DNA from: Escherichia coli
Lineage (GTDB): Bacteria > Pseudomonadota > Gammaproteobacteria > Enterobacterales > Enterobacteriaceae
Direction: 5' to 3' (one strand)
DNA length: 64,000 nt
Assembly: GCF_051903065.1 (NCBI RefSeq)
Contig: NZ_CP178438.1
Every line of letters starts with the position of its first letter. Position 1 is the first letter of the stretch. Positions 40,168 to 64,000 of this stretch are shown one piece after another. The notes below the pieces were generated by a model. The model ran no database searches. It was given only the letters and a program-made list of their open reading frames with translations, and was not told where the DNA came from. The translations under genes and the position numbers were made by a program.

Positions 40168-40172
40168 GAGAT

Positions 40173-40205: not shown

Positions 40206-40222
40206 TCATCACTGTGTTTTGA

Positions 40223-43078: not shown

Positions 43079-43521
43079 TATTTCCAGGTTGCCGTATTCA
43101 GGTTGAAACCAGCCACGCGGTAGGCTTTATAGCGTTCGCGCGCCAGTTGTTTCAGAGAATCTTCATAAGGAACGAAGTCTACCACTTCTGTGAAAGCGGT
43201 GGCAAAATCTGCAAAGCTTGTTCGCAGACTAATCAATATATCGCGCGGGCTGCTGCTGCGTTTTTGCGGCCAGGCGATCTCCACCGGCGCACCGCCGCGC
43301 GGTCCTTCTCCCGCTAAATTATGCGGAACAAAGCTTTCTGCCGGACGCGCCCACAGGGCTTCATCCAGCCGGTAAGCCTGCTTTTCATCTTCACAGGCGA
43401 TGAGCACGCGCTTACCGCTGCGCCAACGTTCTGCGGCAATTTCACACACCAGTTGCTCAACGGCGCTTAAGCCATCGACGGTGGTGTCATTGTCCAGAAG
43501 GTAGAACGTCGCGTTTTTCAT
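43078..43521 (-). CDS. holC: DNA polymerase III chi subunit
   Basis: 147-aa [28 protein letters not shown]... Confidence 0.95.
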
Positions 43522-43544
43522 AAATGGGGCTTCTTGTGGTGGAT

Positions 43545-43870
<326 letters not shown>

Positions 43871-43876
43871 ACGCAA

Positions 43877-45391
<1,515 letters not shown>

Positions 45392-45654
45392 CTACGCTCC
45401 TGAATCTTAAAGACAACGGCGGTGGCTACAGATAGAATTGCAAGCTTTCGTAACTCATGTCCGCTGTTGCGATGACTTCGTGTTAATCTTAACGTTATTA
45501 CGGCATTGGCACGTCAGAACAAAATCTGAGAGGTGAATCCGTTGAGTATAATTATCTTAGCGACGATTTCGACGACTCAAGAGAATAAATGACGTTTAAG
45601 CCATGAAACAAGCTAAAATCCTGCAAAAGACGAGTTTTTACGGGCGTATTTAAA

Positions 45655-47837: not shown

Positions 47838-47851
47838 CCGAATGAACGAAT

Positions 47852-47880
47852 AAAGGGAGCGAAAGCTCCCTTTATTATTG
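47852..47880 (+). terminator. rho-independent terminator after lptFG
   Basis: Hairpin aaagggagc-gaaa-gctcccttt followed by a T-rich tract. Confidence 0.65.
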
Positions 47881-47997
47881 TTAGCAAAGTGTGCTTCGTT
47901 CATTCCTGAAAAATTATGAAAATCCAATATATTGCAGTGGTGTAGGCATGATAAGACGCGCCAGCGTCGCATCAGGCAAAGACAAATCGCACCTGGC

Positions 47998-49500
47998 TTA
48001 CCTTTTTCTCCCCCCCAGCAAACTCCCCAACATTCCACGCACAATCTGATTCGTCACCTGGCGGGCGGCGCTTTTGGCCATTGTTCGCACCACACCATCT
48101 TTCTTCCCGCCGCGTGGTCCGGTAGTGCCAAACAAAATATCCTTCAATCCACCAAGAATGCCGTCATCCACCGCCACCTCTTTCCCTTTCACGGCAGGAT
48201 TATTTTGCTGCTCGGTGCTTGCCTGTACGCCTTTTTGCAACATCTCATAGGCGGATTCCCGGTCCACGTCATCCTCGTACTTGCCATACACCGGAGAGTG
48301 ATTAATCAAGCCATTACGCTCATCTTCCGTCACCGGTCCCATCCGCGAACAAGGCGCAATCACCATCGCCCGTTCCACCACAGAAGGACTTCCTTTTGCA
48401 TCGAGAAACGAGATTAACGCCTCGCCGGTCCCCAGTTCCTGGATTGCCTTTTCGGTATCAAATGCAGGGTTGGGGCGCATGGTTTGCGCCGCAGCTTTTA
48501 CCGCTTTCTGATCTTTGGGCGTAAAAGCCCGCAAAGCGTGCTGAACGCGATTACCGAGCTGGCCGAGCACATTATCCGGAATATCAGACGGGTTTTGCGA
48601 AACGAACCAGACGCCCACGCCTTTTGAGCGAATAAGCCTTATCACCTGCTCAATCTTATCCAGCAGTACCTGCGGGGCATCGTTAAACAGCAGATGTGCT
48701 TCGTCGAAGAAAAACACCAGTTTTGGTTTCTCCAGATCGCCCGCTTCCGGCAATTGTTCATATAACTCTGAAAGCATCCACAGCAGGCTGGCGGCGTACA
48801 GTTTTGGCATCTGATAAAGCTTCTCGGCGCTGAGGATATTGATAACGCCTTTACCGTTGGCATCGGTGCGCATCCAGTCTTTGATATCCAGCATCGGCTC
48901 ACCAAAGAAGTGTGCTGCGCCTTGCTGTTCCAGCGACAACAGCCCGCGCTGGATGGCACCAACCGATGCGCTACTGATATTTCCGTACTGATTCTGGAAA
49001 GATTTGGCGTTATCGCCGATGTACTGGGTAATCGCCCGCAAATCTTTAAAGTCGAGCAGTAACAGCCCCTGATCGTCAGCAATGCGGAAGATGATATTCA
49101 GCACGCCAGATTGCACATCGTTGAGATTCAACAGCCGCGCCAGCAACAGCGGCCCCAGGTCTGAAACCGTCGCCCGCACCGGATGGCCTTTCTCGCCAAA
49201 GATATCCCACACCACCACCGGATTGGCATGCGGTTGCCAGTCATTGACGCCGATATTTTTAAGCCTTGCGAGCAGTTTTTCCGATGCCGTTCCTGCCTGC
49301 GCGATGCCGGTCAGATCGCCTTTCACATCGGCCATAAACACCGGAACACCGATTTCCGATAGAGACTCCGCCAGTTTTTGCAGCGTGACAGTTTTACCCG
49401 TCCCCGTTGCGCCAGTAATCAGCCCGTGACGGTTAGCCATTCCCGGCAGTAAAAATAGTTCTGTGTCCGGCGTGCGGGCAATTAACAGGGGTTCGCTCAT
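47998..49500 (-). CDS. yjgR: DUF853-family P-loop NTPase YjgR
   Basis: [10 protein letters not shown]...GATGTGKT Walker A; 500 aa from ATG 49500. Confidence 0.9.
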
Positions 49501-49629
49501 GAGATTTCCTCCAGTTTCCTGCCTGGAGTATAGGCAACGGCTGCGCACTCTTCACCGCTAAATTCAGCAGATTGCGAGACGCCTTCCAAAGAGATTTAAG
49601 TGCCGGGCGACAGGCACCCGGCAAAGGGA

Positions 49630-50649
49630 TCAGAAGTCGGCTTTCAGGACCACTCGGTAGCGCGCTTTACCATCGCGCACATGCTTGATGGCGTCGTTAA
49701 TTTTCGACATCGGGAACAGTTCGGTAGTCGGCGCAACCTTGCTGCGGGCGGCAAAGCGCATCAGCTTACGCAACTCATAAGGCGTGCCGGTAGCAGAACC
49801 AGAGACGCTGCGGTCGCCCGCAATTAACGTAAAGGCCGGAACAGACAGCGGCGTGAGGACCGCACCGACCGTATGGAAATTACCGCCATAGGTCAGCGCC
49901 TCAAAATAGGGCTGCCAGTCGAGGCTGACGTTGACGGTGTTGATAATGAGATCAAACTGCCCCGCCAGTGCTTTCAGTGCCTGTGGATCGCGGCTATTCA
50001 CCACTTTATCGGCACCCATCGCCAGCACTTCCTGCTCTTTCGCCGGATTAGAACTAAAGGCCGTCACCTCGCATCCCATTGCGTGCAGAAGTTTTATAGC
50101 GATATGCCCCAGCCCGCCAATACCAATTACCCCAACGCGGCTGGTAGCAGTGATATGGTGCATCAACAGTGGTTTAAAGACCGTGATACCGCCGCACAAC
50201 AGCGGCCCGGCGGACTCGATATCAATATTTTCTGGCAGTGGAATCACCCATTGCCAGTCCGCACGCAACTTCTCGGCAAAGCCACCGCGATTCATAATCG
50301 TCGGCACCGCACCTTGCTCGCAGTTGATCTGATTACCGCTAATACAGGCGTCGCAGTGACCACAGCTACGCGCCGTCCAGCCAATCCCGACACGCTGACC
50401 GACCTGCAAACCTTTATCCTGCGCGGCGCTCCCGAGTGCCACCACGCGACCAATCACCTCATGCCCGGCAACCAGCGGATATTGTGAAAATCCCCATTCG
50501 TTATCGATCATCGACAGATCGGAATGGCAGATCCCGCAGTAATCCACCTGCACTTCAACATCTTGTGGCTTCAGTTCACCGGGATCGTACTCATAAACTT
50601 CCAGTTCGCCGCCTGCTTCTTTTGCGGCATAGCTTTTTATCATCGACAT
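49630..50649 (-). CDS. ahr: NADPH-dependent aldehyde reductase Ahr (Zn-dependent alcohol dehydrogenase family)
   Basis: [10 protein letters not shown]...GHEVIG...GIGGLGH motifs; 339 aa from ATG 50649. Confidence 0.9.
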
Positions 50650-50844
50650 TTTTTGGTCCTTCTCTGGTGTTGTCTGGGAAGTGTAGAGCATGGCAGGGCG
50701 GGGTGCCTGGAGTGTGACAAAGGTTACACATCGCTGTATGCAATGCTGAAAATTTCAGCACTTAGCAAAGTGGGTGCAAGCTGGCGCTTGCATGGTGGCG
50801 TGCGACAGGTATAATCCACAACGTTTTCCGCATACCTCTTCAGT

Positions 50845-50929
50845 GCCGAAGTGGCGAAATCGGTAGACGCAGTTGATTCAAAATCAACCGTAGAAATACG
50901 TGCCGGTTCGAGTCCGGCCTTCGGCACCA
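50845..50929 (+). tRNA. leuX: tRNA-Leu (anticodon CAA)
   Basis: 85-nt sequence gccgaagtggcgaaatcggtagacgcagttgattCAAaatcaacc...ggttcgagtccggccttcggcacca with D-arm, long variable arm, T-arm and CCA end. Confidence 0.95.
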
Positions 50930-50942
50930 AAAGTATGTAAAT

Positions 50943-50967
50943 AGACCTCAACTGAGGTCTTTTTTTA
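50943..50967 (+). terminator. rho-independent terminator of leuX
   Basis: Hairpin agacctc-aact-gaggtct followed by T7. Confidence 0.75.
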
Positions 50968-51042
50968 TGCCTGAAATCCAGTGTTTATCTACCTTTCCCG
51001 CTATATTAACTCTCTCAAGGTCAACCGATATCAACGTACATC

Positions 51043-51060
51043 TACCAACATATGTTGGTA
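51043..51060. promoter_or_regulatory. perfect 18-bp palindrome upstream of integrase gene
   Basis: taccaacatatgttggta, with a further half-site ttgtaccaacag about 40 bp downstream; possible integrase or repressor binding site. Confidence 0.3.
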
Positions 51061-51115
51061 CAGATGATGGTATTTCCGGTTCGATAATGCTTGTACCAAC
51101 AGGGAGGGAATACGC

Positions 51116-52381
51116 ATGGCATTAACAGATATCAAAGTCAGAGCAGCCAAGCCAACGGATAAGCAATATAAGCTGACTGATGGTGGCGGTATGCATCTGC
51201 TTGTCCATCCAAATGGTTCTAAGTACTGGCGTTTGCAGTACCGTTATGAGGGAAAGCAAAAAATGCTGGCACTTGGGGTTTATCCTGAAATCACACTAGC
51301 GGATGCCAGAGTACGTCGTGACGAGGCGCGTAAGCTGCTTGCGAATGGCGTCGATCCGGGAGACAAAAAGAAAAATGATAAGGTTGAACAGAGTAAAGCA
51401 CGAACCTTTAAAGAAGTCGCGATTGAGTGGCATGGCACCAATAAAAAGTGGTCTGAAGATCACGCCCATCGTGTGCTAAAAAGTCTGGAAGATAATCTTT
51501 TTGCAGCGCTTGGTGAACGTAATATCGCTGAGTTAAAAACTCGAGATTTATTAGCACCCATTAAGGCCGTAGAAATGTCTGGACGTCTTGAAGTGGCCGC
51601 TCGTCTTCAGCAGCGCACTACAGCCATCATGCGCTATGCAGTGCAAAGTGGGTTAATTGATTATAACCCGGCACAAGAGATGGCTGGGGCGGTTGCTTCC
51701 TGTAATCGACAACATCGTCCCGCGCTTGAATTAAAGCGCATCCCTGAGTTGCTTACAAAAATAGATAGCTATACTGGTAGGCCGCTAACCCGATGGGCGA
51801 CAGAACTCTCTTTGCTGATCTTTATTCGGTCCAGTGAGCTGCGTTTTGCTCGTTGGTCAGAGATCGATTTCGAAGCGTCTATATGGACTATCCCACCGGA
51901 GCGGGAGCCTATTCCTGGAGTGAAACATTCCCATAGAGGCTCAAAAATGCGTACAACGCATCTAGTGCCTCTTTCAACGCAAGCTCTTGCAATTTTAAAG
52001 CAGATAAAACAGTTTTGTGGGGCCCATGACTTGATATTTATTGGTGATCACGATTCGCACAAACCCATGAGTGAGAATACGGTAAATAGTGCGTTACGGG
52101 TCATGGGGTATGATACAAAAGTAGAGGTTTGTGGTCATGGCTTTCGAACAATGGCCTGTAGTTCATTGGTCGAATCAGGTTTGTGGTCTCGTGATGCTGT
52201 TGAACGTCAGATGAGCCACATGGAGCGAAATTCAGTGAGGGCCGCGTATATCCATAAAGCAGAGCATCTGGAAGAACGCCGCTTGATGCTACAATGGTGG
52301 GCCGATTTTCTGGATGCAAACAGAGAAAAATTTATCAGTCCATTTGAATATGCAAAGATTAATAATCCATTAAAACAGTAA
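51116..52381 (+). CDS. P4-type tyrosine integrase (IntB-like) marking a leuX-integrated island
   Basis: 421-aa ORF immediately 3' of a tRNA gene, N-terminal MALTDIKVRAAKP...KYWRL typical of P4 integrases, C-terminal catalytic region with conserved HxxR and Tyr; RBS agggaggg. Confidence 0.9.
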   Translation: MALTDIKVRAAKPTDKQYKLTDGGGMHLLVHPNGSKYWRLQYRYEGKQKMLALGVYPEITLADARVRRDEARKLLANGVDPGDKKKNDKVEQSKARTFKEVAIEWHGTNKKWSEDHAHRVLKSLEDNLFAALGERNIAELKTRDLLAPIKAVEMSGRLEVAARLQQRTTAIMRYAVQSGLIDYNPAQEMAGAVASCNRQHRPALELKRIPELLTKIDSYTGRPLTRWATELSLLIFIRSSELRFARWSEIDFEASIWTIPPEREPIPGVKHSHRGSKMRTTHLVPLSTQALAILKQIKQFCGAHDLIFIGDHDSHKPMSENTVNSALRVMGYDTKVEVCGHGFRTMACSSLVESGLWSRDAVERQMSHMERNSVRAAYIHKAEHLEERRLMLQWWADFLDANREKFISPFEYAKINNPLKQ

Positions 52382-52704
52382 TCATCCCGGGCAAATGCCC
52401 GGGAACTTACTCCATGAATATTTTCTTTGTTAAAAAGGCAAAACGATATTAACTGATGTATTAAATGTTTACCGGATTGCTCCCTGCAGGTGGATTATCA
52501 GAATCCGCAGTTATTCGTTATTTATATATATTCAATAAAAAGAAACATCATAAAAAATCCCGCACCCACAGGGTGATGCGGGATAACTGACGTAAGGAAT
52601 GTTACCGGGATTTGGTGGTCCCTTGTGCTGATATGAATACAGGTTCTATTCTATACAGAATCCTTTTCAGTACAAGAGACTGTATTACAGTTTGCCATAT
52701 ATGA

Positions 52705-54204
52705 TTACCTGTGGTCCGGAAGAATAAGTGGCTGCGGTTTCAGACTGTCTGCCGGCACATTTTTCTCTCCGTTAAAAACCATAACGGGTTCATTATCTTC
52801 GTCTGTCAGCGGATTGAATGGCGGTATATTTTCGGTACGAATACCGGTCAGCCACTGAAAAATGCCTGCGAAATTACGGGCACTGATTTTCCTGCTGACG
52901 GACTGATGAGACGTGATGTCACTGGCGGTAATAATCAGGGGAACGCTGTAGCCCCCCTGCACATGACCATCATGATGAACAGGATTAGCACTGTCGCTGA
53001 CCGACAGCCCATGGTCAGAAAAGTAAAGCATTGCAAAGTGACGGGAATGCCGGCGAAGGATACCATCAAGCTGACCGAGAAAGTTATCCAGTTTACTGAT
53101 GCTGGCGAGGTAACAGGCAATCTTTCGGGGATACTGCTCCAGGTAATAATTCGGCCAGGAGTTAAGTCGGTCACACGGATTCGGATGAGAGCCAATCATG
53201 TGCAGGAAAATCACCTTCGGCGAGGATTTATCCGCCAGCGCACGTTCTGTTTCCTGTAACAACAACATGTCATCCGTTTTACGGGAAGCGAAGCTGCCTT
53301 TCTTGAGGAAAACGGTATGCTCCGCATCAGAAGCAATAACAGAGATGCGTGTGTCATGCTCTCCCAGTTTTCCCTGATTGGATATCCACCATGTGCTGTA
53401 TCCTGCTTTTGCTGCCAGCGCCACCACGTTGTTGCCGGAGTCAGGGTTCTGCTCATAGTCATAAATCAGTGTCCGGCTCAGGGAAGGTACGGTACTGGCT
53501 GCTGTCGATGTATAGCCGTCAATAAATAAACCGGGAGCAGTATTCAGCCACGGCGTGGTTGGCACGGGATAGCCATATACCGACATATAATCCCTGCGCA
53601 CACTCTCACCAGTAACGATAACAATCGTGTCATACAACGGCACACCCGGCAGGATTTTCCAGTTATCAGCCCCGTGCTGACTCAGTTGTTTATAACGCTG
53701 CATTTCACGCAATGTGTCAGTTGTCCCCACAACAGTTCCTTTAACCATCCGCAACGGCCAGCTGTTTACAGAGCATAATACGAATAGCAGCAGTGCCAGC
53801 CAGTTACGGTGACCGCGGTGGTGTGTCCGCCAGAAAATCACCATGAATACCAGAATCGCGGCACTGACCAGAAAATGATAAACAGGAATCATCCCGGTAA
53901 ACTCTGCAGCCTCATCAGCCGTGGTCTGCAGCAACGCGACAATAAAACTGTTGTTGATTTTACCGTACGTCATACCCGCAGGCGCATACAGTGCACAACA
54001 GAACAGAAATAACAGCGCTGTAATGGATGTGAGGGTATTTCTGTGTGCAAGGAGAAGAAGGAGAAACAGAAGCAGCACATTTCCTGTGGCATTCTTCTCA
54101 GTGTATCCGCATGCAATTGTGGTTATTGCAGAAACAACAAAAAAGAATAAAAACAATAAAATCCGGGGTGTGTTTCCCGGACAAAACAGTTTTCTGATAT
54201 TCAT
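52705..54204 (-). CDS. sulfatase-family inner membrane protein, phosphoethanolamine transferase-like (EptA/OpgE family; yjgX-like)
   Basis: 499-aa ORF with N-terminal TM helices and C-terminal sulfatase-type domain (HMIGSH...SDHG). Confidence 0.75.
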   Translation of the reverse strand: MNIRKLFCPGNTPRILLFLFFFVVSAITTIACGYTEKNATGNVLLLFLLLLLAHRNTLTSITALLFLFCCALYAPAGMTYGKINNSFIVALLQTTADEAAEFTGMIPVYHFLVSAAILVFMVIFWRTHHRGHRNWLALLLFVLCSVNSWPLRMVKGTVVGTTDTLREMQRYKQLSQHGADNWKILPGVPLYDTIVIVTGESVRRDYMSVYGYPVPTTPWLNTAPGLFIDGYTSTAASTVPSLSRTLIYDYEQNPDSGNNVVALAAKAGYSTWWISNQGKLGEHDTRISVIASDAEHTVFLKKGSFASRKTDDMLLLQETERALADKSSPKVIFLHMIGSHPNPCDRLNSWPNYYLEQYPRKIACYLASISKLDNFLGQLDGILRRHSRHFAMLYFSDHGLSVSDSANPVHHDGHVQGGYSVPLIITASDITSHQSVSRKISARNFAGIFQWLTGIRTENIPPFNPLTDEDNEPVMVFNGEKNVPADSLKPQPLILPDHR

Positions 54205-54363
54205 CGGAGTATATCGACAACATTATGATGAAGAGAACAGGATAATAAAAATCAGAAATTATCTGTAAAACAGATAACAGACAACCCTGCAGTATAATTA
54301 CTGCAGGGTGTTTCCTTTTAATTACAGAAGATAAGTAATTATTATCTTTCAGGAGCAGTTTCG

Positions 54364-55104
54364 TCAGAAGTTATAAGTCACACCAAGCATGATGTCATGA
54401 CTTTTAACATCAACCTCTGATTTATATTTATCGCCCCACTCATCCTTGTAACTCACACTGCTGTCACCTGCATCAATATAGCGATAGCTGAGGTCAAGAG
54501 CGATATCCGGGGTTACGTCATAACGGACACCAGCCCCAAGGCTCCATGCAAAGTTGTCAGCAGAGTCTGAGTGTGACAACGACTCACGCCCACTGTACCC
54601 GTACCCATAATCCCAGGTACTGATACCAGTTGTTTTCTGATGAATTCTGGCGTAACCAATCCCTGCGGATACCCATGGTGTGAATGCACTGTCGTTCCGG
54701 AAGTCATAGTACGTATTCAGCATCAGAGTGTTGACTGACACTTCATTCTTCAGGTCATCACGCCAGTAACCACCTGACCAGCTGTCTTTATCTACGTTAT
54801 ACTTCGAATCAGCTTTTCCACGCGCGTAAAACTCCAGTTCTGTACGAACCGGAATACTGAACTGCGGATAAAAATCATAACCGGCCGCAATACCGCCACT
54901 GAATACCGTATCATGGTCATCGCCGCCTTTATACTTTGACGTTTCTTCCTCATCTCCTGACAGGAAACGCTGGTCTGAAAGTGACACCACAGAGGCACCG
55001 GCTTTACCGGTCAGATAAAAACCGCTTTTACCTTCCTCAGCACCTGCATTTGCTGCAAATACACAGGCTGCGGCCACCACTGAAACAGCAAAAACCTTTT
55101 TCAT
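54364..55104 (-). CDS. outer membrane beta-barrel protein (OmpA-like transmembrane domain family)
   Basis: 246-aa ORF with signal peptide MKKVFAVSVVAAACVFAANAGA, alternating aromatic/hydrophobic beta-strand pattern and C-terminal ...GVTYNF. Confidence 0.7.
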   Translation of the reverse strand: MKKVFAVSVVAAACVFAANAGAEEGKSGFYLTGKAGASVVSLSDQRFLSGDEEETSKYKGGDDHDTVFSGGIAAGYDFYPQFSIPVRTELEFYARGKADSKYNVDKDSWSGGYWRDDLKNEVSVNTLMLNTYYDFRNDSAFTPWVSAGIGYARIHQKTTGISTWDYGYGYSGRESLSHSDSADNFAWSLGAGVRYDVTPDIALDLSYRYIDAGDSSVSYKDEWGDKYKSEVDVKSHDIMLGVTYNF

Positions 55105-55455
55105 TTCAATTATCTCCGTTATTGCTCCGTTGCTGCAAGCAGTACTCAGTGCATTTTAAAACCCGCCATGCGATAGTCTCAATTGAATAAAATCGATCTA
55201 ATCGATAGATGATATCGATCGTCATTAACCAGAAATTTTTATCGTATTCAGTCAGCACAGATACAACAAATGCATGCCATGCAGACAGTCATACCCGGCA
55301 ACAACAGCAGATGGTTGCTGAGCAAGCAGGGAGTGAGGCTGAATCCCGGGGAAGAAAAAACCTGTAAAATTTGTTTATTCTGCCAGGAGATAAAAGTGAC
55401 GTGTGTTCATGTAACACACCAGGGACGAAAGATGCATGGACTGACAGTTTGGGGG

Positions 55456-56512
55456 GGCTTTGTTGAATAAATCGAACTTTTGCTGAGTTGAAGGATCAGA
55501 TCACGCATCCTCCCGACAACACAGACCATTCCGTGGCAAAGCAAAAGTTCAGAATCACCAACTGGTCCACCTACAACAAAGCTCTCATCAACCGTGGCTC
55601 CCTCACTTTCTGGCTGGATGATGAAGCGATTCAGGCCTGGTATGAGTCGGCAACGCCTTCATCACGAGGAAGGCCCCAGCGCTATTCTGATCTCGCCATC
55701 ACCACCGTTCTGGTGATTAAACGCGTATTCCGGCTGACCCTGCGGGCTGCGCAGGGTTTTATTGATTCCATTTTTGCCCTGATGAACGTTCCGTTGCGCT
55801 GCCCGGATTACACCAGTGTCAGTAAGCGGGCAAAGTCGGTTAATGTCAGTTTCAAAACGTCCACCCGGGGTGAAATCGCACACCTGGTGATTGATTCCAC
55901 CGGGCTGAAGGTCTTTGGTGAAGGCGAATGGAAAGTCAGAAAGCACGGCAAAGAGCGCCGTCGTATCTGGCGAAAGTTGCATCTTGCTGTTGACAGCAAC
56001 ACACATGAAGTTGTCTGTGCAGACCTGTCGCTGAATAACGTCACGGACTCAGAAGCCTTCCCGGGCCTTATCCGGCAGACTCACAGAAAAATCAGGGCAG
56101 CCGCGGCAGACGGGGCTTACGATACCCGGCTCTGTCACGATGAACTGCGCCGCAAAAAAATCAGCGCGCTTATTCCTCCCCGAAAAGGAGCAGGTTACTG
56201 GCCCGGTGAGTACGCAGACCGCAACCGTGCCGTTGCTAATCAGCGGCTGAGCGGAAGCAATGCACGGTGGAAATGGACAACGGAATATAACCGTCGCTCG
56301 ATAGCGGAAACGGCAATGTACAGAATGAAGCAGTTGTTGGGAGATTCACTGACGCTGCGTGACTACGATGGTCAGGTAGCGGAAGCTATGGCCATGGTGC
56401 GTGCGTTGAACAGGATGACAAAGGCTGGGATGCCAGAAAGCGTGCGTATTGCCTGAAAATCCAGCCAGCTACAGGGTCGTTCGCACGAAATCTTATTTAT
56501 TCAACAAAGCCC
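55456..56512 (+). mobile_element. IS903-group insertion sequence (IS5 family), about 1057 bp
   Basis: Left end ggctttgttgaataaatcgaacttttgctgagttgaaggatcag and inverted right end ...tcttatttattcaacaaagcc; single transposase ORF; no flanking 9-bp direct repeat. Confidence 0.85.
55533..56456 (+). CDS. IS903-type transposase (DDE)
   Basis: ORF VAKQKFRITNWSTYNKALINRGSLTFWLDDEAIQAWYE...; start placed at in-frame GTG to give 307 aa (tool ORF begins at TTG 55488). Confidence 0.85.
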   Translation: MAKQKFRITNWSTYNKALINRGSLTFWLDDEAIQAWYESATPSSRGRPQRYSDLAITTVLVIKRVFRLTLRAAQGFIDSIFALMNVPLRCPDYTSVSKRAKSVNVSFKTSTRGEIAHLVIDSTGLKVFGEGEWKVRKHGKERRRIWRKLHLAVDSNTHEVVCADLSLNNVTDSEAFPGLIRQTHRKIRAAAADGAYDTRLCHDELRRKKISALIPPRKGAGYWPGEYADRNRAVANQRLSGSNARWKWTTEYNRRSIAETAMYRMKQLLGDSLTLRDYDGQVAEAMAMVRALNRMTKAGMPESVRIA

Positions 56513-57624
56513 ATACCCCTCTGAAAATCAGTCATCAACTCACCAACACATCTTCTGAAATCTGTATTAAACTTATTGCTTAAATAGATGATATAACACA
56601 TCTTCCATTGCACGGAATCAGCGAAAACTGTCATTCTGGCAATCTTAACAAGATCATTTATCGGTTAATTTTATCAGTAAACAATGGAATATCACACTGA
56701 TAAAATGAACATTCAGGGTAAGATGATAAAATTCACATAAAAAATGCTGAAGATTATTTATTTCATGCAGATAAACGATAAAATACAAGAGAGTATATTT
56801 TTCAGTGTAAGAGTCAATCGTTCATCTCCACTGACGATCACGGTCAGCACATAAACAAAGTGAGTCCTCCTGCTTAGTCATTGCGTATCAGAAACTAAAA
56901 AACAAAAGATTCTGTAAACAACGTGACATTTTTTATGACATTTCCCGAATACAGATATATCAACAAACAGTAGTCAGCGTTGAATTAATAAGTTTTACAG
57001 GGCTATACGTATCTTATAAAACCACTCAACGACCATCATCACCTGACTATTTAGCGGGAGTATCATCTGTATAAATTCCTAAATAATAACACCTGTTATT
57101 AAAATAAGAATGCTGTCAGCAGTAAATTATTAACATAACACCTGTCCACTCTATCTGTTCTTCTAACTCAACCGGCATCGAAAATATTGCCTGATTAGTG
57201 CATCATAGCCTTCTTTTTTCTTTCCCGACCATCAAAACAAATACAACATTTACAACCACACAATAAAACAAAACTAAAACAAAACTAAAACATAAGATTA
57301 ACAACACCAATCAACAGGAAAACACTGAATATTGAGGTGCCCTGTAACCTGGAGAGCGCATACGGCGCATGTGATCAACACAGCCCATTCTTTTCTGTCA
57401 TCCCCCAAATGCAGAACAAACAAGCATAACCTAATGAATATAAAATAAAATATTATTTTTCACCATCATAAAAACATCAATGTATCTTTATATAAAAACA
57501 CTGATAACATGACATAAACATTTAAAAACATAAACAAATCACAACAAAAACATTTGATAATCACTTAGTGACAAAATAAAATTGAGACGATTTTGTTATA
57601 AGAGAGGCGCCATGGAGTGAGATA

Positions 57625-58644
57625 ATGAATAACGAACAGATGCTTATCAAATGCAAAGATCCCCGTAAATGTCGGTTTTATGCTGAATATCTGAATCACA
57701 AATACCCCAATGAATTCCCTCAGTTTGCGCCTGACAACCCACAAAACTGTATCAGAAATGTTAATGCGTTTTTAAAAGAAAAGTATTGTAATACTTCAAA
57801 CAATTCTTTTGGTGTTTTTGGTTCGACTGCAGAAGAAGCTCTCAGCAAAGAAATTAATGAACTTGAAATTATTGCAGGGCAGGCAATACTGCCTGAAGAG
57901 AGTTTTCTCTGGTTGAAAACTGACGAACTTGCGACTTTCTTTACCTGGACTACTATTTATCTGTCGAAGGAAGACCATACAAATTTCCCGGAAATAAACC
58001 ATAATTCATCAGGGATAAAAAACGGAATTGAAGTCAGAAAAAGACGAACAGTTACCGATGAAACGTTAAATACTTACAAAAAAAGTAACCTTCCGGATAA
58101 TCCATCATCCCATAACGAACGAATAAAAGTAATCATTTTATATTTTGATTCCTGTCATTCTTTAATTAATAAAAATGCAAAAAGCATATACCTCGAGGAA
58201 CTCAGGCAGACGTGGCTTAAAAATAAAAGCGCTTGTCAAAAGTTTAAGTGGCTCCTTCCTGACGATGATGAAATGTGTCAGTGGTTCTGGACAAGACTGA
58301 AACAAAAACAGGATGAAACACATCCGGTACATAACCCGGTGACCCGGTGGTTCATACCATCTTCAACGAAAGAATATTATCTTGCCTCTCTCGTCGCCTT
58401 TGCTTTATGGAAAGAGGCACCTGATACCATTGAACTGTTCAGAACACGCATAAATCATGCCTGGCATCAAAAAAAACAAAAAGACAAATATCGGAATGAT
58501 GGTAAAAAGGCTATTAATATACATATAAGAAGCAATGCGAAAGAAATGCTTGATGAACTCAGAACTGTTTACGGTCTGAGAACAGGAGAGTTTTTTGAAA
58601 TGCTGATTACAGAAAAATATCTTGAACACAAGCGAAGGAAGTAA
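57625..58644 (+). CDS. hypothetical protein, AT-rich orphan ORF
   Basis: 339-aa ORF with RBS ggagtgag upstream; lysine/asparagine-rich, several Cys/His; no family recognised from sequence alone. Confidence 0.5.
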   Translation: MNNEQMLIKCKDPRKCRFYAEYLNHKYPNEFPQFAPDNPQNCIRNVNAFLKEKYCNTSNNSFGVFGSTAEEALSKEINELEIIAGQAILPEESFLWLKTDELATFFTWTTIYLSKEDHTNFPEINHNSSGIKNGIEVRKRRTVTDETLNTYKKSNLPDNPSSHNERIKVIILYFDSCHSLINKNAKSIYLEELRQTWLKNKSACQKFKWLLPDDDEMCQWFWTRLKQKQDETHPVHNPVTRWFIPSSTKEYYLASLVAFALWKEAPDTIELFRTRINHAWHQKKQKDKYRNDGKKAINIHIRSNAKEMLDELRTVYGLRTGEFFEMLITEKYLEHKRRK

Positions 58645-58695
58645 TTCATTACCTGTTACATTCTAAATAATCTCAGACAGATATTATCTCCGTGA

Positions 58696-58731
58696 ATCCC
58701 CCGCCACCTTTCCGGTGCGCGGGGTTTTGTC
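58696..58731 (+). terminator. putative rho-independent terminator downstream of the 339-aa ORF
   Basis: GC-rich inverted repeat ccccgc...gcgggg followed by ttttgtctttttt. Confidence 0.45.
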
Positions 58732-58753
58732 TTTTTTCACCGGGAATACATGT

Positions 58754-59581
58754 ATGAATCCGTCTGATGCCATTGAGGCAATTGAAAAACCGCTCTCCTC
58801 CCTGCCTTACTCACTTTCCCGTCACATCCTGGAACATCTGCGCAAACTCACCAGCCACGAACCCGTGATTGGCATTATGGGGAAAAGCGGGGCCGGTAAA
58901 TCCTCACTCTGTAATGCACTGTTTCAGGGGGAGGTCACCCCGGTCAGTGATGTTCACGCCGGCACCCGGGAAGTGCAGCGCTTCCGTCTGAGTGGCCATG
59001 GTCACAGCATGGTTATCACTGACCTGCCCGGGGTGGGCGAGAGCCGTGACAGGGATGCAGAGTATGAAGCCCTGTACCGTAACATTCTGCCTGAACTTGA
59101 CCTGGTACTGTGGCTGATTAAAGCCGATGACCGTGCCTTGTCTGTGGATGAGTATTTCTGGCGACACATTCTGCACCGGGGACATCAGCAGGTGCTGTTT
59201 GTGGTGACGCAGGCCGATAAAACGGAGCCCTGCCATGAATGGGATATGGCCGGTATTCAGCCTTCTCCCGCACAGGCACAGAACATTCGCGAAAAAACGG
59301 AGGCGGTATTCCGTCTGTTCCGGCCCGTACATCCGGTTGTGGCCGTATCGGCTCGCACCGGCTGGGAACTGGATACGCTGGTCAGTGCGCTCATGACAGC
59401 GCTTCCCGACCATGCCGCCAGTCCCCTGATGACCCGCCTGCAGGACGAGCTGCGCACGGAATCTGTCCGCGCTCAGGCCCGTGAACAGTTTACCGGTGCG
59501 GTGGACCGGATATTTGACACGGCGGAGAGCGTCTGTATTGCCTCTGTTGCCCGCGCGGTATGGAACTGGATTTTCTTCTGA
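58754..59581 (+). CDS. YfjP/YeeP/YkfA-family small GTPase (prophage-like island backbone GTPase)
   Basis: P-loop GIMGKSGAGKSSLCNALF, G3 DLPGVGE, G4-like TQADK, C-terminal ...ARAVWNWIFF resembling K-12 YfjP/YkfA from memory; start at ATG 58754 (tool ORF starts at GTG 58715). Confidence 0.8.
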   Translation: MNPSDAIEAIEKPLSSLPYSLSRHILEHLRKLTSHEPVIGIMGKSGAGKSSLCNALFQGEVTPVSDVHAGTREVQRFRLSGHGHSMVITDLPGVGESRDRDAEYEALYRNILPELDLVLWLIKADDRALSVDEYFWRHILHRGHQQVLFVVTQADKTEPCHEWDMAGIQPSPAQAQNIREKTEAVFRLFRPVHPVVAVSARTGWELDTLVSALMTALPDHAASPLMTRLQDELRTESVRAQAREQFTGAVDRIFDTAESVCIASVARAVWNWIFF

Positions 59582-59701
59582 ACCCGGTGGTGATGCACCA
59601 GACTCTTGTTACAGATTTTTAACTCCATGAAAACACAATGCAAACGCAGCCATACCCGGGTTGTCCCCTTGTGTTGTGTTTTCCAGATTAATAGAATGCA
59701 T

Positions 59702-59720
59702 CGATCGTTATAAACGATCG
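59702..59720. promoter_or_regulatory. perfect inverted repeat (cgatcgtt-ata-aacgatcg) about 60 bp upstream of the dynamin-like gene
   Basis: 8-bp arms with 3-bp spacer in the 200-bp gap between the two GTPase genes; candidate operator. Confidence 0.3.
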
Positions 59721-59780
59721 TTTGTGGTAAATGACCTCCTCCGTGGTTGTCATGAAAATGCGTCTCAGGAAGGTTAAATA

Positions 59781-62165
59781 ATGCACGAAAAGAACATCGC
59801 CCTGCTTTGTGATGAAGCCGACCGACTTTTGCAACTGAACATTAATCTGCTCCGGCAAATGGTTGATGAACCGGATGTGTTATCTGACAGTAAGAACGAA
59901 AACAGACTGCTTTTCGATAAACAGAAAGCACTGAAAAGAATTGAGGAGCTGGAGGGCGAACAAATCAAAACCGCCCGCAGGGAGATGGTGCTGGCTGTTG
60001 TCGGCACGATGAAAGCAGGTAAATCAACTACCATCAACGCCATTGTGGGGCAGGAAATTCTGCCTAACCGTAACCGCCCCATGACCTCTGTACCGACGCT
60101 CATCCGCCACGTTCCCGGAAAAACTGAGCCGGTCCTCCATCTGGAACATATTCAGCCCGTCCGCAATTTATTAAGCACACTGCAACAAAAACTCGACACC
60201 CCGGCAGGACAGCAAGTCGCACAGACCCTGCAGCAAACCGGGGATACCTGCGAACTGCTGGATATTCTGGCAAATGATGGCTGGCTCAAAAATGAATACC
60301 ACGGGGAGGAGGAAATCTTTACCGGACTGGCATCGTTAAACGATCTGGTTCGCCTTGCTGCGGCAATGGGGAGTGAGTTTCCTTTTGATGAATACGCAGA
60401 AGTGCAGAAACTGCCGGTGATCGACGTGGAATTCAGCCATCTGGTGGGGATGGATGCATGCCAGGGAACACTCACACTGCTGGATACCCCCGGCCCTAAT
60501 GAGGCCGGACAACCGCAGATGGAAGTGATGATGCGGGATCAACTGCAGAAAGCCTCTGCGGTGCTGGCGGTGATGGATTACACCCAGATGAACTCAAAAG
60601 CGGATGAAGACGTCCGTAAAGAGCTTAATGCCATTGCTGACGTATCAGCCGGCCGCCTGTTTGTGCTGGTCAATAAATTTGATGAGAAAGACCGCAATGG
60701 CGATGGGGCAGATGCCGTACGCCAGAAAGTTCCGGCAATGCTGAACAGTGATGTGCTGCCCGCCTCCCGCGTTTATCCAGGCTCATCACGTCAGGCGTAC
60801 CTGGCTAACCGTGCGCTTCATGAGTTACGGAAAAACGGAACCCTTCCTGTTGATGAAGCCTGGGTCGATGATTTTGTCAGGGAAGCCTTCGGTCGCATGA
60901 AAAAAGAATACGTCTGTAAAGACAGTGAAATGGCAACCGAAGGGGCGACAGACCTGTGGGAAGGTTCACTTATCGATCAACTGATAACGGAAGTCATACA
61001 GAGCTCCCATTCCAGAGCGGCGGCACTGGCGGTTGATTCTGCCGCCGCAAAACTGATGCAGAATGCGGAAAATGTCAGCGAATATCTGTCATTACGCCAT
61101 CAGGGGCTACAGCAAAGCATTCAGTCACTGCAGGCGCATATCTCCAGCCTGCTGGCGGATATCCGGGAAATCGCGGACTGTCAGGAGCAGGTGACCGCAG
61201 ATGTCAGAATGGCTATGGAGGAGATCGATACTAAAACCCGGGAATTACTGACGGGGGTCTGCACCTCACTGGAAGAGGAGCTGAATGACTATTTCAGAAG
61301 CGGTAAACGCAAAGAACAGCAAATGCTGGAGGAAGAAAATTCAGCGCAGCCCCGGGAGAGAAACGCATTCGCTTTCTTTCACGATATTTTCGGAACCGGA
61401 AATCAGCATGACAGGATGCGGGACTTTGATCCGGACAGCCCCGAAATAAAATTCAGTGATCGCAGGGAAGCCCTTGAACTGATGACGCAAATCGAATCGA
61501 CCGTGACCAGCCTGCACCGTGAGGCTGAAGCACAGTTCCGTCCTGAACTGGAAAAAATCGTCAGGGGTATTGAAACAGGTTTTCGTGGTACGGCCCTGTA
61601 CGCCACAGAAAATATTGCCGGACGCATCAATGCCCGTCTGGAGGATGAAGGTTTCACTGTAAAAATCAGTTTTCCGGCAGTCAGCCAGTTACAGACCCGG
61701 CTCGCAGTAAAAACAAATCTGAGCGCGCTTATGGAGGAAAGAACGGAGACCGTCACTCGTCGCTGTCGACAGGATGGTGTCTGGGGTACGCTTTGTCGAT
61801 GGGCAAACACCAGTGACTGGGGCTGGAAAGAGTACAGTGTGGATGTGAGCCGCAGCGTGATCAATATCAACAAGGTCAGAGAGGAAGTGATGTCACTGAC
61901 CCGGGCATATTTCGGGGAGCTGCAGGCATCCATTGAGCAGGATATTAACCAGCCCGTCCGCCAGGAAATCGATGCCTTTTTCTGCGCATTCAGGGAGAAA
62001 GTTGAACAACTGCGTAACACGCTGATTCAGAGCTCTGAAGATCGTAAACGCGATCAGCAGGCGCAGGAACGGCTTACCGGGCGACTTCAGGCATTAAATG
62101 AAAGGGTTCCTGAGCTCATTACTGACAGTAAGGCGCTGAGGGAAGAGCTGGAGACAATGCTGTGA
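59781..62165 (+). CDS. bacterial dynamin-like large GTPase
   Basis: 794-aa ORF; G1 VVGTMKAGKSTTINAIVG (res 73-90), G3 LLDTPGPNE, G4 VLVNKFDEKD, followed by about 500 aa of helical/coiled-coil stalk-like sequence; RBS caggaagg 7 nt upstream. Confidence 0.8.
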   Translation: MHEKNIALLCDEADRLLQLNINLLRQMVDEPDVLSDSKNENRLLFDKQKALKRIEELEGEQIKTARREMVLAVVGTMKAGKSTTINAIVGQEILPNRNRPMTSVPTLIRHVPGKTEPVLHLEHIQPVRNLLSTLQQKLDTPAGQQVAQTLQQTGDTCELLDILANDGWLKNEYHGEEEIFTGLASLNDLVRLAAAMGSEFPFDEYAEVQKLPVIDVEFSHLVGMDACQGTLTLLDTPGPNEAGQPQMEVMMRDQLQKASAVLAVMDYTQMNSKADEDVRKELNAIADVSAGRLFVLVNKFDEKDRNGDGADAVRQKVPAMLNSDVLPASRVYPGSSRQAYLANRALHELRKNGTLPVDEAWVDDFVREAFGRMKKEYVCKDSEMATEGATDLWEGSLIDQLITEVIQSSHSRAAALAVDSAAAKLMQNAENVSEYLSLRHQGLQQSIQSLQAHISSLLADIREIADCQEQVTADVRMAMEEIDTKTRELLTGVCTSLEEELNDYFRSGKRKEQQMLEEENSAQPRERNAFAFFHDIFGTGNQHDRMRDFDPDSPEIKFSDRREALELMTQIESTVTSLHREAEAQFRPELEKIVRGIETGFRGTALYATENIAGRINARLEDEGFTVKISFPAVSQLQTRLAVKTNLSALMEERTETVTRRCRQDGVWGTLCRWANTSDWGWKEYSVDVSRSVININKVREEVMSLTRAYFGELQASIEQDINQPVRQEIDAFFCAFREKVEQLRNTLIQSSEDRKRDQQAQERLTGRLQALNERVPELITDSKALREELETML

Positions 62166-63067
62166 CTTCACCATTTATTCAACAAATTGCTGATAACCGG
62201 GTATGTCAGGTACTCACCTGTCTTCCTGAAAAATTTGTGGTTGATTTCGCAAACGGAATCGATGTTGCACAGGAGCATATCCGCACGGCCGGAGAGCGCA
62301 CGTTCTTCCGGCGTTTAAAAGAGGGGATGACCGGCGAAGGCGCTGCACGGCAGAATGCCATCAATGCTTCGCTTGCACAGGGCGTTGAGGCGTCCCTGCG
62401 CTGGCTGACGGAGCTGACAACGTCACTTGCCACCACAAACTACGCGATTACCCGGGTAAACGACAGGGTCAGTTCACTGGTCAGTGATACTGCCAGGCTG
62501 GCGCATTATTCGGCTGACACGCGGGAGCAGTTACTCACCCTGGCCGATCAGGTTCACCAGAAACTGAATCATCTTGAAGAAAAACTCCACCGTGTTGACC
62601 AGGTTCAGCGGGCGCAGTTACATCTTGAGCAGATATTCTCATGGTGGAGCGCCGGGCGATATGCGTCATTTTCCCCTGCCGGACGTTGTTATGTGGCACT
62701 TGAAGAGCTTCGCTGGGGCGCGTTTGGTGATGTGATACGCCAGGGCGAAACAGGCCAGGTTAACCAGCTACTGGATATTCTCAGACATAAAGCATTAACG
62801 CAGATGGCACAGGAGAGTGGCGGTAGTGCAACCGTGCGTCTGAACACTCTGGACTGGCTTGGTGGTCAGGGCCGGGAGCAGGCAGATAACGAGTGGCATG
62901 ACGCGATTAACTGGCTGGGGGACTGGTGCAGTGAAGAGCAGCATCCGGTGATCTGGTCAACCACGCAGGCTGCAGAACACTTACCGGTTCGCATGCCTCG
63001 CCTCTGCTCTGCAGAACGCCTCTCTGAAAGTATGGTCGATGAAATATTTCAGAAGGGGGCAGCATGA
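62162..63067 (+). CDS. hypothetical protein of unknown function, translationally coupled to flanking genes
   Basis: 301-aa ORF whose GTG start overlaps the upstream stop (GTGA) and whose stop overlaps the downstream ATG (ATGA); predicted helical middle region. Confidence 0.55.
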   Translation: MTSPFIQQIADNRVCQVLTCLPEKFVVDFANGIDVAQEHIRTAGERTFFRRLKEGMTGEGAARQNAINASLAQGVEASLRWLTELTTSLATTNYAITRVNDRVSSLVSDTARLAHYSADTREQLLTLADQVHQKLNHLEEKLHRVDQVQRAQLHLEQIFSWWSAGRYASFSPAGRCYVALEELRWGAFGDVIRQGETGQVNQLLDILRHKALTQMAQESGGSATVRLNTLDWLGGQGREQADNEWHDAINWLGDWCSEEQHPVIWSTTQAAEHLPVRMPRLCSAERLSESMVDEIFQKGAA

Positions 63068-64000
63068 GTACAGAAATGAAAACGGGGCTGGTGCTGTCCG
63101 GCGGCGGGGCGGTGGGCGCTTATCAGGCAGGTGTGGTTAAGGCACTGGCAGAGTGTGGCACACAGATCAGCATGGTTTCAGGGGCCAGCATTGGCGCATT
63201 CAATGGTGCCATTATCGCGGCCTCTCCCGATCTGTCAGAAGCAGCCGCACGCCTGGAGGCGCTCTGGAAGCATCTGGGGAATAATCAGGTGCTGTCGGTA
63301 AACCGATCGGTTTACTTTTCATTGCTGAAAAAAATGGTTCAGGCCATGAACCTCTGCCAGATCCCCGGACGTGCAGGAGCACTGCTTACGACACTTCTTC
63401 GCCATATATCGATAATCAACGGCTTCGACAATCCGATGGCTCAGCCGCTGTTGTCAGATGAGCCTCTGACAGCGCTGTTGGATCATTATCTTGATACTGA
63501 TGCTCTGGCAGACGGGCTACCGCTGTATGTGTCGCTGTACCCCACAGAAGGGGGCATGCAGGATATTATTGACTGCATTCGTGCTGAACTGGGTGCCGGA
63601 ACCACGAAAAACGCCGTTTTTCAGCATATCCAGAGCCTGCCCCGCGGACAGCAGAAAGAGGCTCTGCTTGCGTCAGCCGCGCTGCCCCTGCTGTTCCGTC
63701 CCCGTGAGGTTCAGGGGACAATGTTCGGTGATGGTGGTATGGGAGGATGGCGAAATATGCAGGGAAATACCCCTGTGACGCCTCTGGTCGATGCCGGATG
63801 CAATATGGTGATTGTGACGCATCTGAGTGACGGTTCTTTATGGGATCGCCAGGCTTTTCCGGACACCACAATCCTTGAGATCCGTCCCCGGAAAAGGCTG
63901 AAATATGCAGGTGATGGTGGCAACAGCGGCGGTCTGCTCAGTTTCACGTTGGCACATACCGACGCCTGGCGTCAGCAGGGCTATGAAGACACGATGCTGA
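63064..64000 (+). CDS. patatin-like phospholipase (3' end beyond window)
   Basis: Oxyanion-hole GGGAVGAY, catalytic Ser in GASIG (GxSxG) and catalytic Asp in FGDGGM (DGG) in the correct order and spacing; ORF is open to the window end. Confidence 0.8.
   Translation, partial: MSTEMKTGLVLSGGGAVGAYQAGVVKALAECGTQISMVSGASIGAFNGAIIAASPDLSEAAARLEALWKHLGNNQVLSVNRSVYFSLLKKMVQAMNLCQIPGRAGALLTTLLRHISIINGFDNPMAQPLLSDEPLTALLDHYLDTDALADGLPLYVSLYPTEGGMQDIIDCIRAELGAGTTKNAVFQHIQSLPRGQQKEALLASAALPLLFRPREVQGTMFGDGGMGGWRNMQGNTPVTPLVDAGCNMVIVTHLSDGSLWDRQAFPDTTILEIRPRKRLKYAGDGGNSGGLLSFTLAHTDAWRQQGYEDTML

Follow-up and report, generated by a model that had tools for sequence, protein, structure and literature searches.

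The left part of a P4-integrase-type genomic island with mosaic cargo at leuX in Escherichia coli

The window, i.e. the whole stretch of 64,000 nt of Escherichia coli DNA that was analysed here, ends with the tRNA gene leuX, an integrase gene and a series of cargo genes, the last of which is cut by the window end. The following features were assigned:

50845-50929, plus strand: leuX, tRNA-Leu(CAA), the integration target (ARAGORN; Rfam tRNA, 59.4 bits)
50907-50930, plus strand: attL core TTCGAGTCCGGCCTTCGGCACCAA, 24 nt, one copy in the window
50943-50967, plus strand: intrinsic terminator for leuX, provided by the left arm of the island (hairpin with a 7-bp stem and T7)
51043-51050 (minus), 51053-51060 (plus) and 51094-51101 (minus): three 8-nt repeats TGTTGGTA, candidate arm-type integrase sites
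51116-52381, plus strand: P4-type tyrosine integrase, 421 aa, apparently intact (Pfam Arm-DNA-bind_3, Phage_int_M and Phage_integrase)
52705-54204, minus strand: sulfatase-family phosphoethanolamine (PEtN) transferase (database name; NCBIfam CptA/EptA-type matches, all below the curated cut-offs)
54364-55104, minus strand: outer-membrane beta-barrel protein of the Hra1/Hek/Tia adhesin family (cluster names, NCBIfam, DNA identity)
55455-56512, plus strand: IS903-group (IS5-family) insertion sequence with the transposase at 55488-56456 (NCBIfam IS5-family transposase, 354 bits)
56513-57624, no strand: AT-rich non-coding stretch of 1.1 kb
57625-58644, plus strand: AT-rich ORF of 339 aa, labelled 'transcriptional regulator' in databases
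58754-59581, plus strand: small P-loop GTPase, 275 aa, Era/Der-like (NCBIfam Era/MnmE/Der-type; annotated 'GTPase family protein')
59781-62165, plus strand: dynamin-family GTPase, 794 aa (annotated dynamin family protein; NCBIfam CrfC, 570 bits, cut-off 1146)
62162-63067, plus strand: YjcZ/RdcB-like protein, 301 aa (Pfam YjcZ PF13990, E 1.8e-70)
63064-64000, plus strand: patatin-like phospholipase, truncated by the window end after 312 of 356 codons (Pfam Patatin)

An earlier note on this DNA had described a leuX-integrated island of at least 13 kb with mosaic cargo, which begins with a P4-type integrase gene directly after the tRNA and its terminator. The integrase assignment is borne out by the three Pfam domains, by 59.5% identity to phage P4 Int over 97% of the length and by the catalytic residues R238, H341-x-x-R344, H368 and Y378, which are conserved between both proteins. 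The membrane sulfatase-family protein of that note turned out to be the PEtN transferase at 52705-54204 and its outer membrane barrel protein the Hra1/Hek/Tia family member at 54364-55104. The AT-rich DNA was found as described (GC of 0.347 for 56513-58700), its GTPases correspond to the small P-loop GTPase and the dynamin-family GTPase, and the patatin gene is present and runs off the window end. The name IS903 needs correction: an element of the IS903 group is indeed present, but it is only ≈88% identical to IS903B and hence an isoform, not IS903 itself.

ARAGORN found tRNA-Leu(CAA) as the sole tRNA of the window, and the integrase gene adjoins its 3' end (tRNA at 50845-50929, integrase start at 51116). 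The core TTCGAGTCCGGCCTTCGGCACCAA comprises the 3'-terminal 23 nt of leuX and one additional base, and the 20-nt attP core of phage P4, GAGTCCGGCCTTCGGCACCA, is contained in it. The arm sequence that bears the terminator is also present in KpLE2 of K-12 and in a BREX island, and in a diverged version in 23CRST027. It is absent after the right attachment site (attR) of GDSC2BY4G, the only one of 5,426 complete E. coli genomes that contains the whole 13 kb. Three of the four copies of TGTTGGTA in the 64-kb window cluster at 51043-51101, and in the 97-kb locus of GDSC2BY4G all five copies are located no more than 200 bp from attL or attR. On the 5' side of the core a tandem pair lies at a distance of about 60 nt, on its 3' side three copies lie at 136-194 nt beside the integrase start, and this layout mirrors the annotated attP of P4. 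The count in the 64-kb window alone is not significant (4 observed versus 1.6 expected; 7 of 100 shuffles reach 4), and the weight of these repeats comes from their clustering and from the comparison with attR and P4 only. We consider them candidate arm-type binding sites of the integrase. A promoter scan performed at chance level (18 found versus 17.2 expected) and was left unused; an Rfam scan of 50000-64000 at E ≤ 0.1 yielded only the tRNA and one chance-level match.

The left part of the cargo comprises the PEtN transferase and the adhesin-family protein. The former corresponds, in intact form, to the PEtN-transferase pseudogene found beside leuX in K-12. The region from the integrase to the PEtN transferase shares ≈94.7% DNA identity with its K-12-like counterpart, and this module has some match in 4,202 genomes. 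Cluster names for the beta-barrel protein include heat-resistant agglutinin 1, Hek and Tia invasion determinant; NCBIfam places it with the adhesin Adr subfamily at 100.8 bits, which is below the cut-off, and the gene has ≈86% DNA identity to loci annotated tia.

The insertion sequence that follows has perfect inverted repeats of 18 nt; a flanking 9-bp target duplication was looked for and not found. It represents the boundary between two cargo modules, since its right end is the point where homology switches from COL60J to NCTC9699. COL60J matches the left module at 99.96% identity and shares the outer frame, but lacks the 8.6-kb dynamin block. The 7.5 kb to the right of the element are 100% identical to part of an island that NCTC9699 carries at another chromosomal site, beside yghD/gsp. 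An insertion sequence without target-site duplication that separates modules with such different closest relatives, the right one known from a different locus, is in agreement with the mosaic cargo suspected before.

The right module starts with the AT-rich stretch, in which no ORF longer than 59 aa (56513-57624) and no match to a known sRNA or Rfam family was detected. An 11-nt tandem repeat of 2.6 copies is located at 57264-57292 (TRF); one repeat unit is missing in GDSC2BY4G, and this is the only difference between that genome and the island of the window. Searches of NCBIfam, PADLOC, PHROGs and Pfam with the 339-aa ORF were negative, and the exact protein is encoded on at least 885 contigs. 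Downstream of the small GTPase, the dynamin-family GTPase, a distant paralogue of CrfC/RdcA, forms an operon with the YjcZ-like gene, whose start overlaps the dynamin stop, and with the patatin gene. A full-length copy of the latter in L001 matches Pfam Patatin with E 4.9e-25 and features the motifs GGGxxG, G-A-S-I-G and D-G-G. The dynamin operon is present in 2,440 genomes, corresponding to 45% of complete E. coli, and in up to five places per genome. In the NCTC9699 island the dynamin-YjcZ-patatin operon is flanked by the small GTPase on one side and the antirestriction/CbtA module on the other. Going by the gene order of CP4-44, this would be the usual place of flu (Ag43). The same three-gene architecture has been published for dynamin/RdcB-type operons on horizontally acquired islands, with only ≈30% identity to core RdcA/RdcB; here it is found within a leuX island.

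PADLOC assigned none of the cargo proteins to a defence system. The dynamin-like defence system Eleos (LeoA/LeoBC) was considered and set aside, since the PADLOC matches to LeoBC are only weak and partial (E 3.6e-5 and 21 bits for the dynamin, E 2.9e-8 for the small GTPase). The patatin gave a weak match to a generic 'Effector' phospholipase (E 2.9e-5), the YjcZ-like protein had no match, and the module of all three genes showed no significant match to any described defence family. As a tentative and rather doubtful suggestion, the dynamin, the YjcZ/RdcB-like protein and the patatin (59781 to beyond 64000) might constitute a self-contained membrane-acting module with an anti-phage (e.g. abortive-infection) or membrane-repair function that serves as exchangeable cargo among CP4-type islands.

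Comparison with other genomes defines the left end of the island to the base. In the two genomes whose core is 100% identical, the match to the window is lost precisely behind the final tRNA base (50929), i.e. from 50930 onwards, and an integrase-less R-M island follows leuX instead. Core identity thus stops exactly at 50929/50930, as expected for the leuX-integrated island of at least 13 kb that had been proposed. The tRNA 3' end occurs only once in the window, so that the right boundary indeed lies outside, as the earlier note had stated. The search for a downstream direct repeat suggested there was successful in GDSC2BY4G, where an exact 24-nt attR is located 45,182 bp downstream and only two copies of the repeat exist in 97 kb. 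The island of GDSC2BY4G amounts to 45.2 kb; it contains two small GTPase genes, a YadA-like adhesin and a candidate excisionase resembling Vis/AlpA, and has an antirestriction/RadC/CbtA-CbeA module at its right end. The right end in the source genome is presumably the same, the size of 45.2 kb being read from this other strain. Between the same repeats EC21Z-097 has a different island of 7.3 kb, and 222 genomes contain the predicted (synthetic) empty-site junction without interruption. A look-up with the exact Ahr protein yielded ten leuX loci of other configuration, this island being absent from all of them; Ahr is too widespread for this approach.

The window and GDSC2BY4G show no substitution over 13.2 kb of island, whereas 83 sites (≈3%) differ in the 2.8 kb to the left of leuX. 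Together with the empty site in 222 genomes this substantiates the recent horizontal acquisition that had been claimed. Two findings had been named as arguments against such an acquisition, and neither was obtained. The gene content, far from being contiguous in all E. coli, is so in only one of 5,426 complete genomes, and composition does shift relative to the upstream core, both in GC content (0.476 for the island versus 0.520 for the core) and in dinucleotide delta*. The latter (x1000) is 68-114 in the six 4-kb windows that start at or after 50001, the first of which includes ≈0.9 kb of core, versus 16-50 in the earlier ones.

The island can be related to several known elements. KpLE2 of K-12 (intB, yjgX), with which the earlier note had proposed a comparison, occupies the same insertion site and has a near-identical left arm with terminator and arm repeats. 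The K-12-like homology is limited to the 2,962 nt that directly follow the tRNA. In the K-12-like genome an IS2 is inserted between the integrase and PEtN-transferase genes, the latter gene is broken and the integrase start shows a 1-nt deletion, whereas the genes of the window are intact. Read for ≈6 kb beyond the match, the K-12-like locus continues into IS4 and nanX/nanY, while the window continues with the Hek/Tia-family protein, the IS903-group element and the dynamin block. Since no fec is annotated in the GDSC2BY4G island either, we do not regard the island as the same element as KpLE2. The intP4-type islands (GI-pheV, PAI II536 and other leuX PAIs, CP4-44-like islands) carry a P4-related integrase beside a tRNA gene (PMC11537424, PMC7545054). 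The island of the window shares with them modules that are separated by insertion sequences and vary independently; the bounding direct repeat of ≈23 nt of the tRNA 3' end and the 'yee' right-end module are features of the GDSC2BY4G island. Lists of leuX PAI content in UPEC include a Hek-family adhesin (PMC7545054). Nevertheless, the island is not a UPEC-type leuX PAI of the PAI II536 kind: by annotation, hly, pap, cnf and cdi are missing from the window and from the GDSC2BY4G island, and the only adhesins are the Hek/Tia-family protein and the YadA-like protein. In the 45-kb GDSC2BY4G island, hly, pap, cnf, fec and Ag43 are all without annotation. An integrative conjugative element was likewise dismissed, as no type IV secretion system, relaxase or coupling protein is annotated in the 45-kb island or among the ORFs of the window.

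We conclude, with a probability of about 0.9, that 50907-64000, about 13 kb, is the left portion of an integrative genomic island at leuX that is not self-transmissible and belongs to the P4-integrase (CP4/intP4) type. This reading builds on direct observations, namely the insertion point, the integrase family with its catalytic residues, the empty site, the mosaic junction, the identity of the island across divergent backgrounds and the repeat-bounded unit of 45 kb in GDSC2BY4G. Integration in this lineage was presumably mediated by the integrase. The island could also have entered by homologous recombination of a large imported segment after transduction or conjugation, with a crossover in or near leuX and without a role of the integrase. 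Such an import would fit an island without annotated conjugation or packaging genes (window and GDSC2BY4G), and the tRNA gene, being identical in all compared genomes, could host the crossover; as this gene is invariant in E. coli, a crossover within it leaves the same left junction as site-specific integration, and the left junction is all that the window holds. We nevertheless consider this route unlikely, because the switch of ancestry on the left is confined to 50770-50929 (the tRNA and 76 nt), exact att repeats, each accompanied by cognate arm repeats, delimit the GDSC2BY4G island, and precise empty sites exist in 222 genomes. Vertical inheritance of ancestral DNA that most other E. coli have lost is very improbable. 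Parts of the island are certainly widespread, as the numbers of genomes with the integrase-PEtN module (4,202) or the dynamin operon (2,440) demonstrate; however, the absence of substitutions relative to a genome whose adjacent core differs by ≈3%, the atypical composition, the other content at this site in sister genomes with identical core and the location of the modules at different loci in different strains all speak against it.

The composition of the cargo allows for two further explanations. The locus could consist of two independent adjacent elements, a left KpLE2-type remnant (integrase, PEtN transferase, outer-membrane protein) and a second CP4-type island on the right. The IS junction without target duplication, the separate occurrence of the right block in the NCTC9699 island and the two small GTPase genes of GDSC2BY4G, a kind normally present once per island, are compatible with this. 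However, neither an internal copy of the att repeat nor a second integrase is present in the 45 kb of GDSC2BY4G, and because the outer frame is shared by COL60J, which lacks the dynamin block, the block is better understood as an insertion or exchange inside one frame; two elements are thus quite improbable. The second explanation, a functional P4-like satellite prophage, has next to no likelihood. P4 uses the same attB (leuX) and has a related integrase and the same geometry of arm repeats, and a Vis-like gene is present in the GDSC2BY4G island. The sequence of the arm repeats, however, differs (TGTTGGTA here versus a GGGGGCA-type repeat in P4), and the window and the GDSC2BY4G island lack cos as well as genes for replication, capsid size, helper control and immunity of P4. 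A tblastn search of both detected none of alpha, sid, psu, delta, epsilon, cI, cII, gop and beta, the P4 ends are unmatched by blastn, and the matched P4 genes are Int and the Vis-like ORF only.

For the island integrated at leuX we therefore retain the following model. From what is known of the family, the tyrosine integrase would recombine the att core of the island with chromosomal leuX. The island's own copy of the core and the terminator it carries would now complete the tRNA gene, and the original 3' end of leuX, once displaced, should be located at the far end of the island as attR. The cargo is a patchwork in which the IS903-group element connects a KpLE2-like left end (integrase, PEtN transferase and Hek/Tia-family adhesin) with a block that stems from a different island of this family and comprises the 339-aa ORF, the small GTPase and the dynamin-YjcZ-patatin operon.

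The leuX island described here, of which the window contains the left part, is of an ordinary kind and a recent acquisition in E. coli. Islands at leuX with P4-type integrases are textbook examples of genome plasticity in this species, and the present one has little significance beyond correct annotation. It is an unusually clean example, with an insertion point resolved to the base, no substitution in the island versus ≈3% in the flanking core and an empty site in 222 genomes. Of use to specialists may be the proposed arm-site motif TGTTGGTA for this subgroup of integrases and the dynamin-YjcZ-patatin operon, which is very common and mobile between islands.

In the window, the DNA behind leuX carries the following features:

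50845-50929, plus strand: tRNA-Leu(CAA), leuX; the single tRNA that ARAGORN finds in the window, in agreement with Rfam
50943-50967: terminator (hairpin plus a run of seven T), 3' of leuX
51116-52381, plus strand: integrase, 421 aa
52705-54204, minus strand: phosphoethanolamine transferase of the sulfatase family, 499 aa
54364-55104, minus strand: outer-membrane beta-barrel protein, 246 aa (named Hra1, Hek or Tia in the sources)
55455-56512: IS5-family element of the IS903 group
between this element and the next ORF: AT-rich non-coding DNA, 1.1 kb
57625-58644: 339-aa ORF that matches no family
58754-59581: small GTPase
59781-62165: dynamin-family GTPase, 794 aa
62162-63067: YjcZ/RdcB-like protein
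from 63064, past the window end: patatin-like phospholipase gene

The earlier note had read a tRNA-Leu(CAA) with its terminator and the cargo ORFs in this order, and ARAGORN, Rfam and ORF and domain searches bear out order and content. Its observation and its interpretation as a leuX-integrated island are both judged right. Only the name IS903 has to be given up: the insertion sequence is present, but its identity to IS903B is only ~88% and it is therefore an IS903-group isoform, not IS903 proper.

The insertion point can be located by comparison with two backgrounds. The core at 40000-50844 is 100% identical to two genomes only, 23CRST027 and 23CRST031, all others reaching at most 98.6%. The identity between the window and 23CRST027 stops exactly behind the final tRNA base (50929); behind leuX, that genome has hsdRSM, mcrBC and further restriction genes but no integrase. 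GDSC2BY4G, the sole complete genome with the whole 13 kb, shows 83 differences to the window in 47981-50769 and none in 50770-64000, except for one unit (57264-57274) of the 11-nt tandem repeat TAAAACAAAAC. This repeat (57264-57292) has 2.6 copies in the window and one unit fewer in GDSC2BY4G, the sole difference between the two islands across 13.2 kb. The breakpoints of GDSC2BY4G and 23CRST027 thus confine the switch of ancestry to the tRNA gene and 76 nt. Judged by these sequences, the divergence of the two backgrounds long predates the island.

Some observations concern the core itself. An IS1 copy (35812-36579) stands where, between tabA and argF, GDSC2BY4G has ~1.6 kb of other sequence with a hypothetical gene that carries a frameshift (L001, a locus of that genome, 2330-3922), which suggests an IS1-associated deletion in the lineage of the window. 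The spacer between holC and pepA contains 3.1 tandem copies of a 98-nt unit (43574-43871); gene positions in the leuX-side loci of genomes sharing the same Ahr protein (L010-L019) suggest that the length of this spacer differs among strains. The genes idnK, idnD, idnO, idnT and idnR adjoin ahr in a K-12-like genome (L008) and are absent from that place in the window (yjgR-ahr gap, 49549-49629) and in all other loci fetched.

The tRNA 3' end occurs only once within the 64-kb window, as the earlier note had stated in placing the right boundary outside it. The proposed search for a downstream direct repeat succeeded in GDSC2BY4G, where an exact 24-nt copy, TTCGAGTCCGGCCTTCGGCACCAA, lies 45,182 bp downstream and delimits an island of 45.2 kb, a size that is that of GDSC2BY4G and is used here as a proxy. 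This repeat has two copies only within 97 kb of that genome; in EC21Z-097 the same repeats enclose another element, of 7.3 kb and with a different integrase, ahead of the same downstream DNA; and a synthetic empty site, joining ahr-leuX to the DNA behind attR, is contiguous in 222 genomes. The proxy island is therefore a discrete unit. Its remainder contains remnants of IS1, IS3, IS110, IS256 and IS630, a group II intron, a YadA-like adhesin, an H-NS paralogue, a restriction endonuclease, a 78-aa Vis/AlpA-like excisionase candidate and, as end module, the usual antirestriction-RadC-CbeA/CbtA genes. Past attR in GDSC2BY4G, fimH is truncated by an ISKpn26 copy (locus L002, 30726-32409), and the annotation of this genome is without fimB-fimG or nan genes, which 23CRST027 has between leuX and fimH; this suggests an IS-associated deletion beside the island.

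The integrase is of the P4 type, as had been claimed: it has the three domains of these enzymes and 59.5% identity to phage P4 Int across 97% of its length, the alignment showing that R238, H341-x-x-R344, H368 and Y378 are kept, and its PDB matches are 'CP4-like integrase' domains. In the annotation of P4, the attP core is a 20-nt sequence, GAGTCCGGCCTTCGGCACCA, with two tandem 12-nt arm repeats ~55 nt to one side and three more on the other, beside the int start. The island shows this same geometry, but the motif differs: TGTTGGTA lies at 51043 (minus), 51053 (plus) and 51094 (minus), between core and int start, and in GDSC2BY4G there are two tandem copies with 12-nt spacing, 62-74 nt ahead of attR. 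Across 97 kb of that genome the motif has five copies, none more than 200 bp from an att site. We infer that these repeats are candidate arm-type binding sites.

Two other loci have nearly the same left arm, terminator included: the K-12-like locus of KpLE2, the K-12 leuX element, and an unrelated leuX island that carries BREX; a diverged, integrase-less copy (~75% identical) lies directly 3' of leuX in 23CRST027 (locus L003, 1781-2004). Since the arm is common to several leuX islands, arm and integrase form a shared integration module with varied cargoes. The 23CRST027 copy spans the terminator and the arm-repeat region within a restriction-modification island, and appears to be a remnant of this island family, fixed and without integrase. 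In the K-12-like genome the integrase start (L008, 6186-6250) has, relative to the integrase of the window, a 1-nt deletion near the start codon and TAG for AAG a few codons in, changes that may lie behind the later annotated start.

Composition and distribution argue for a foreign origin. The GC content is 0.476 in the island versus 0.520 in the 50.8 kb of core, with extremes of 0.347 (56513-58700) and 0.536 (58701-64000). The six 4-kb windows starting at or after 50001, the first of which still holds ~0.9 kb of core, have dinucleotide distances to the core (delta* x1000) of 68-114, versus 16-50 in all earlier ones, so that even the GC-normal right part of the island is atypical. Among 5,426 complete E. 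coli genomes, a single one contains 80% or more of the 13.3 kb. Neither of the patterns that the earlier note had named as contrary to recent acquisition, contiguity with core genes in all E. coli or a composition like that of the upstream core, was thus obtained. The yjgN region (38944-40167) is markedly AT-rich amid ordinary core (GC 0.373 for 39001-40000).

The cargo is indeed mosaic. The IS (55455-56512) is bounded by perfect 18-nt inverted repeats, but its 9-nt flanks are unlike (gtttggggg left, catacccct right); it thus marks a rearrangement, not a simple insertion. The sequence to its left matches COL60J at 99.96% identity and, at ~94.7%, the left end of K-12 KpLE2; there, an IS2 lies between the integrase and a degraded phosphoethanolamine transferase gene. 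To the right of the IS, 56510-64000 matches part of an NCTC9699 island at 100% identity; that island adjoins yghD/gsp, which by K-12 gene order is the pheV site. In COL60J the outer island is the same but does not contain this 8.6-kb block, and the adjacent IS1-bounded 3.9 kb are inverted.

The dynamin-YjcZ-patatin operon spans 59781-64000 and continues in L001 to about 32460. This part occurs in 2,440 of 5,426 complete E. coli genomes, at up to five places per genome and many chromosomal positions. The patatin keeps its GGGxxG, GxSxG and DGG motifs; PADLOC, PHROG and NCBIfam equivalog searches gave no match for the operon. A dynamin/RdcB-like/phospholipase operon has been seen on other islands, is reportedly strongly induced in a lysogen and was put forward, without test, as a defence system (PMC12922286).

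As to class, a P4-like satellite is rejected: apart from int and a Vis-like ORF, neither the window nor the proxy island has counterparts of P4 genes, and cos is missing as well. The annotation contains no conjugation genes, and PADLOC assigns no defence system. The island is also neither of the PAI II536 type nor KpLE2 proper, because the proxy annotation is without hly, pap, cnf and fec clusters. Islands at pheV carry intP4 alleles, ~23-nt direct repeats and modules parted by IS elements, of which the 'flu' and 'yee' modules evolve independently (PMC11537424); the features of the window and the proxy island match this pattern. Reviews count leuX among the most used tDNA hotspots of E. coli, with pathogenicity islands of 39-123 kb, several of which carry the Hek adhesin (PMC7545054). 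Public genomes with the same Ahr protein hold at least seven other contents beside leuX, among them hsdRSM/mcrBC, BREX, DndB with TGT, BrxR with a JetD-like protein, ScoMcrA-type nucleases and an islet with a 636-aa integrase. The island is an unremarkable new example of a class that has been thoroughly described already, and leuX is a hotspot for defence islands.
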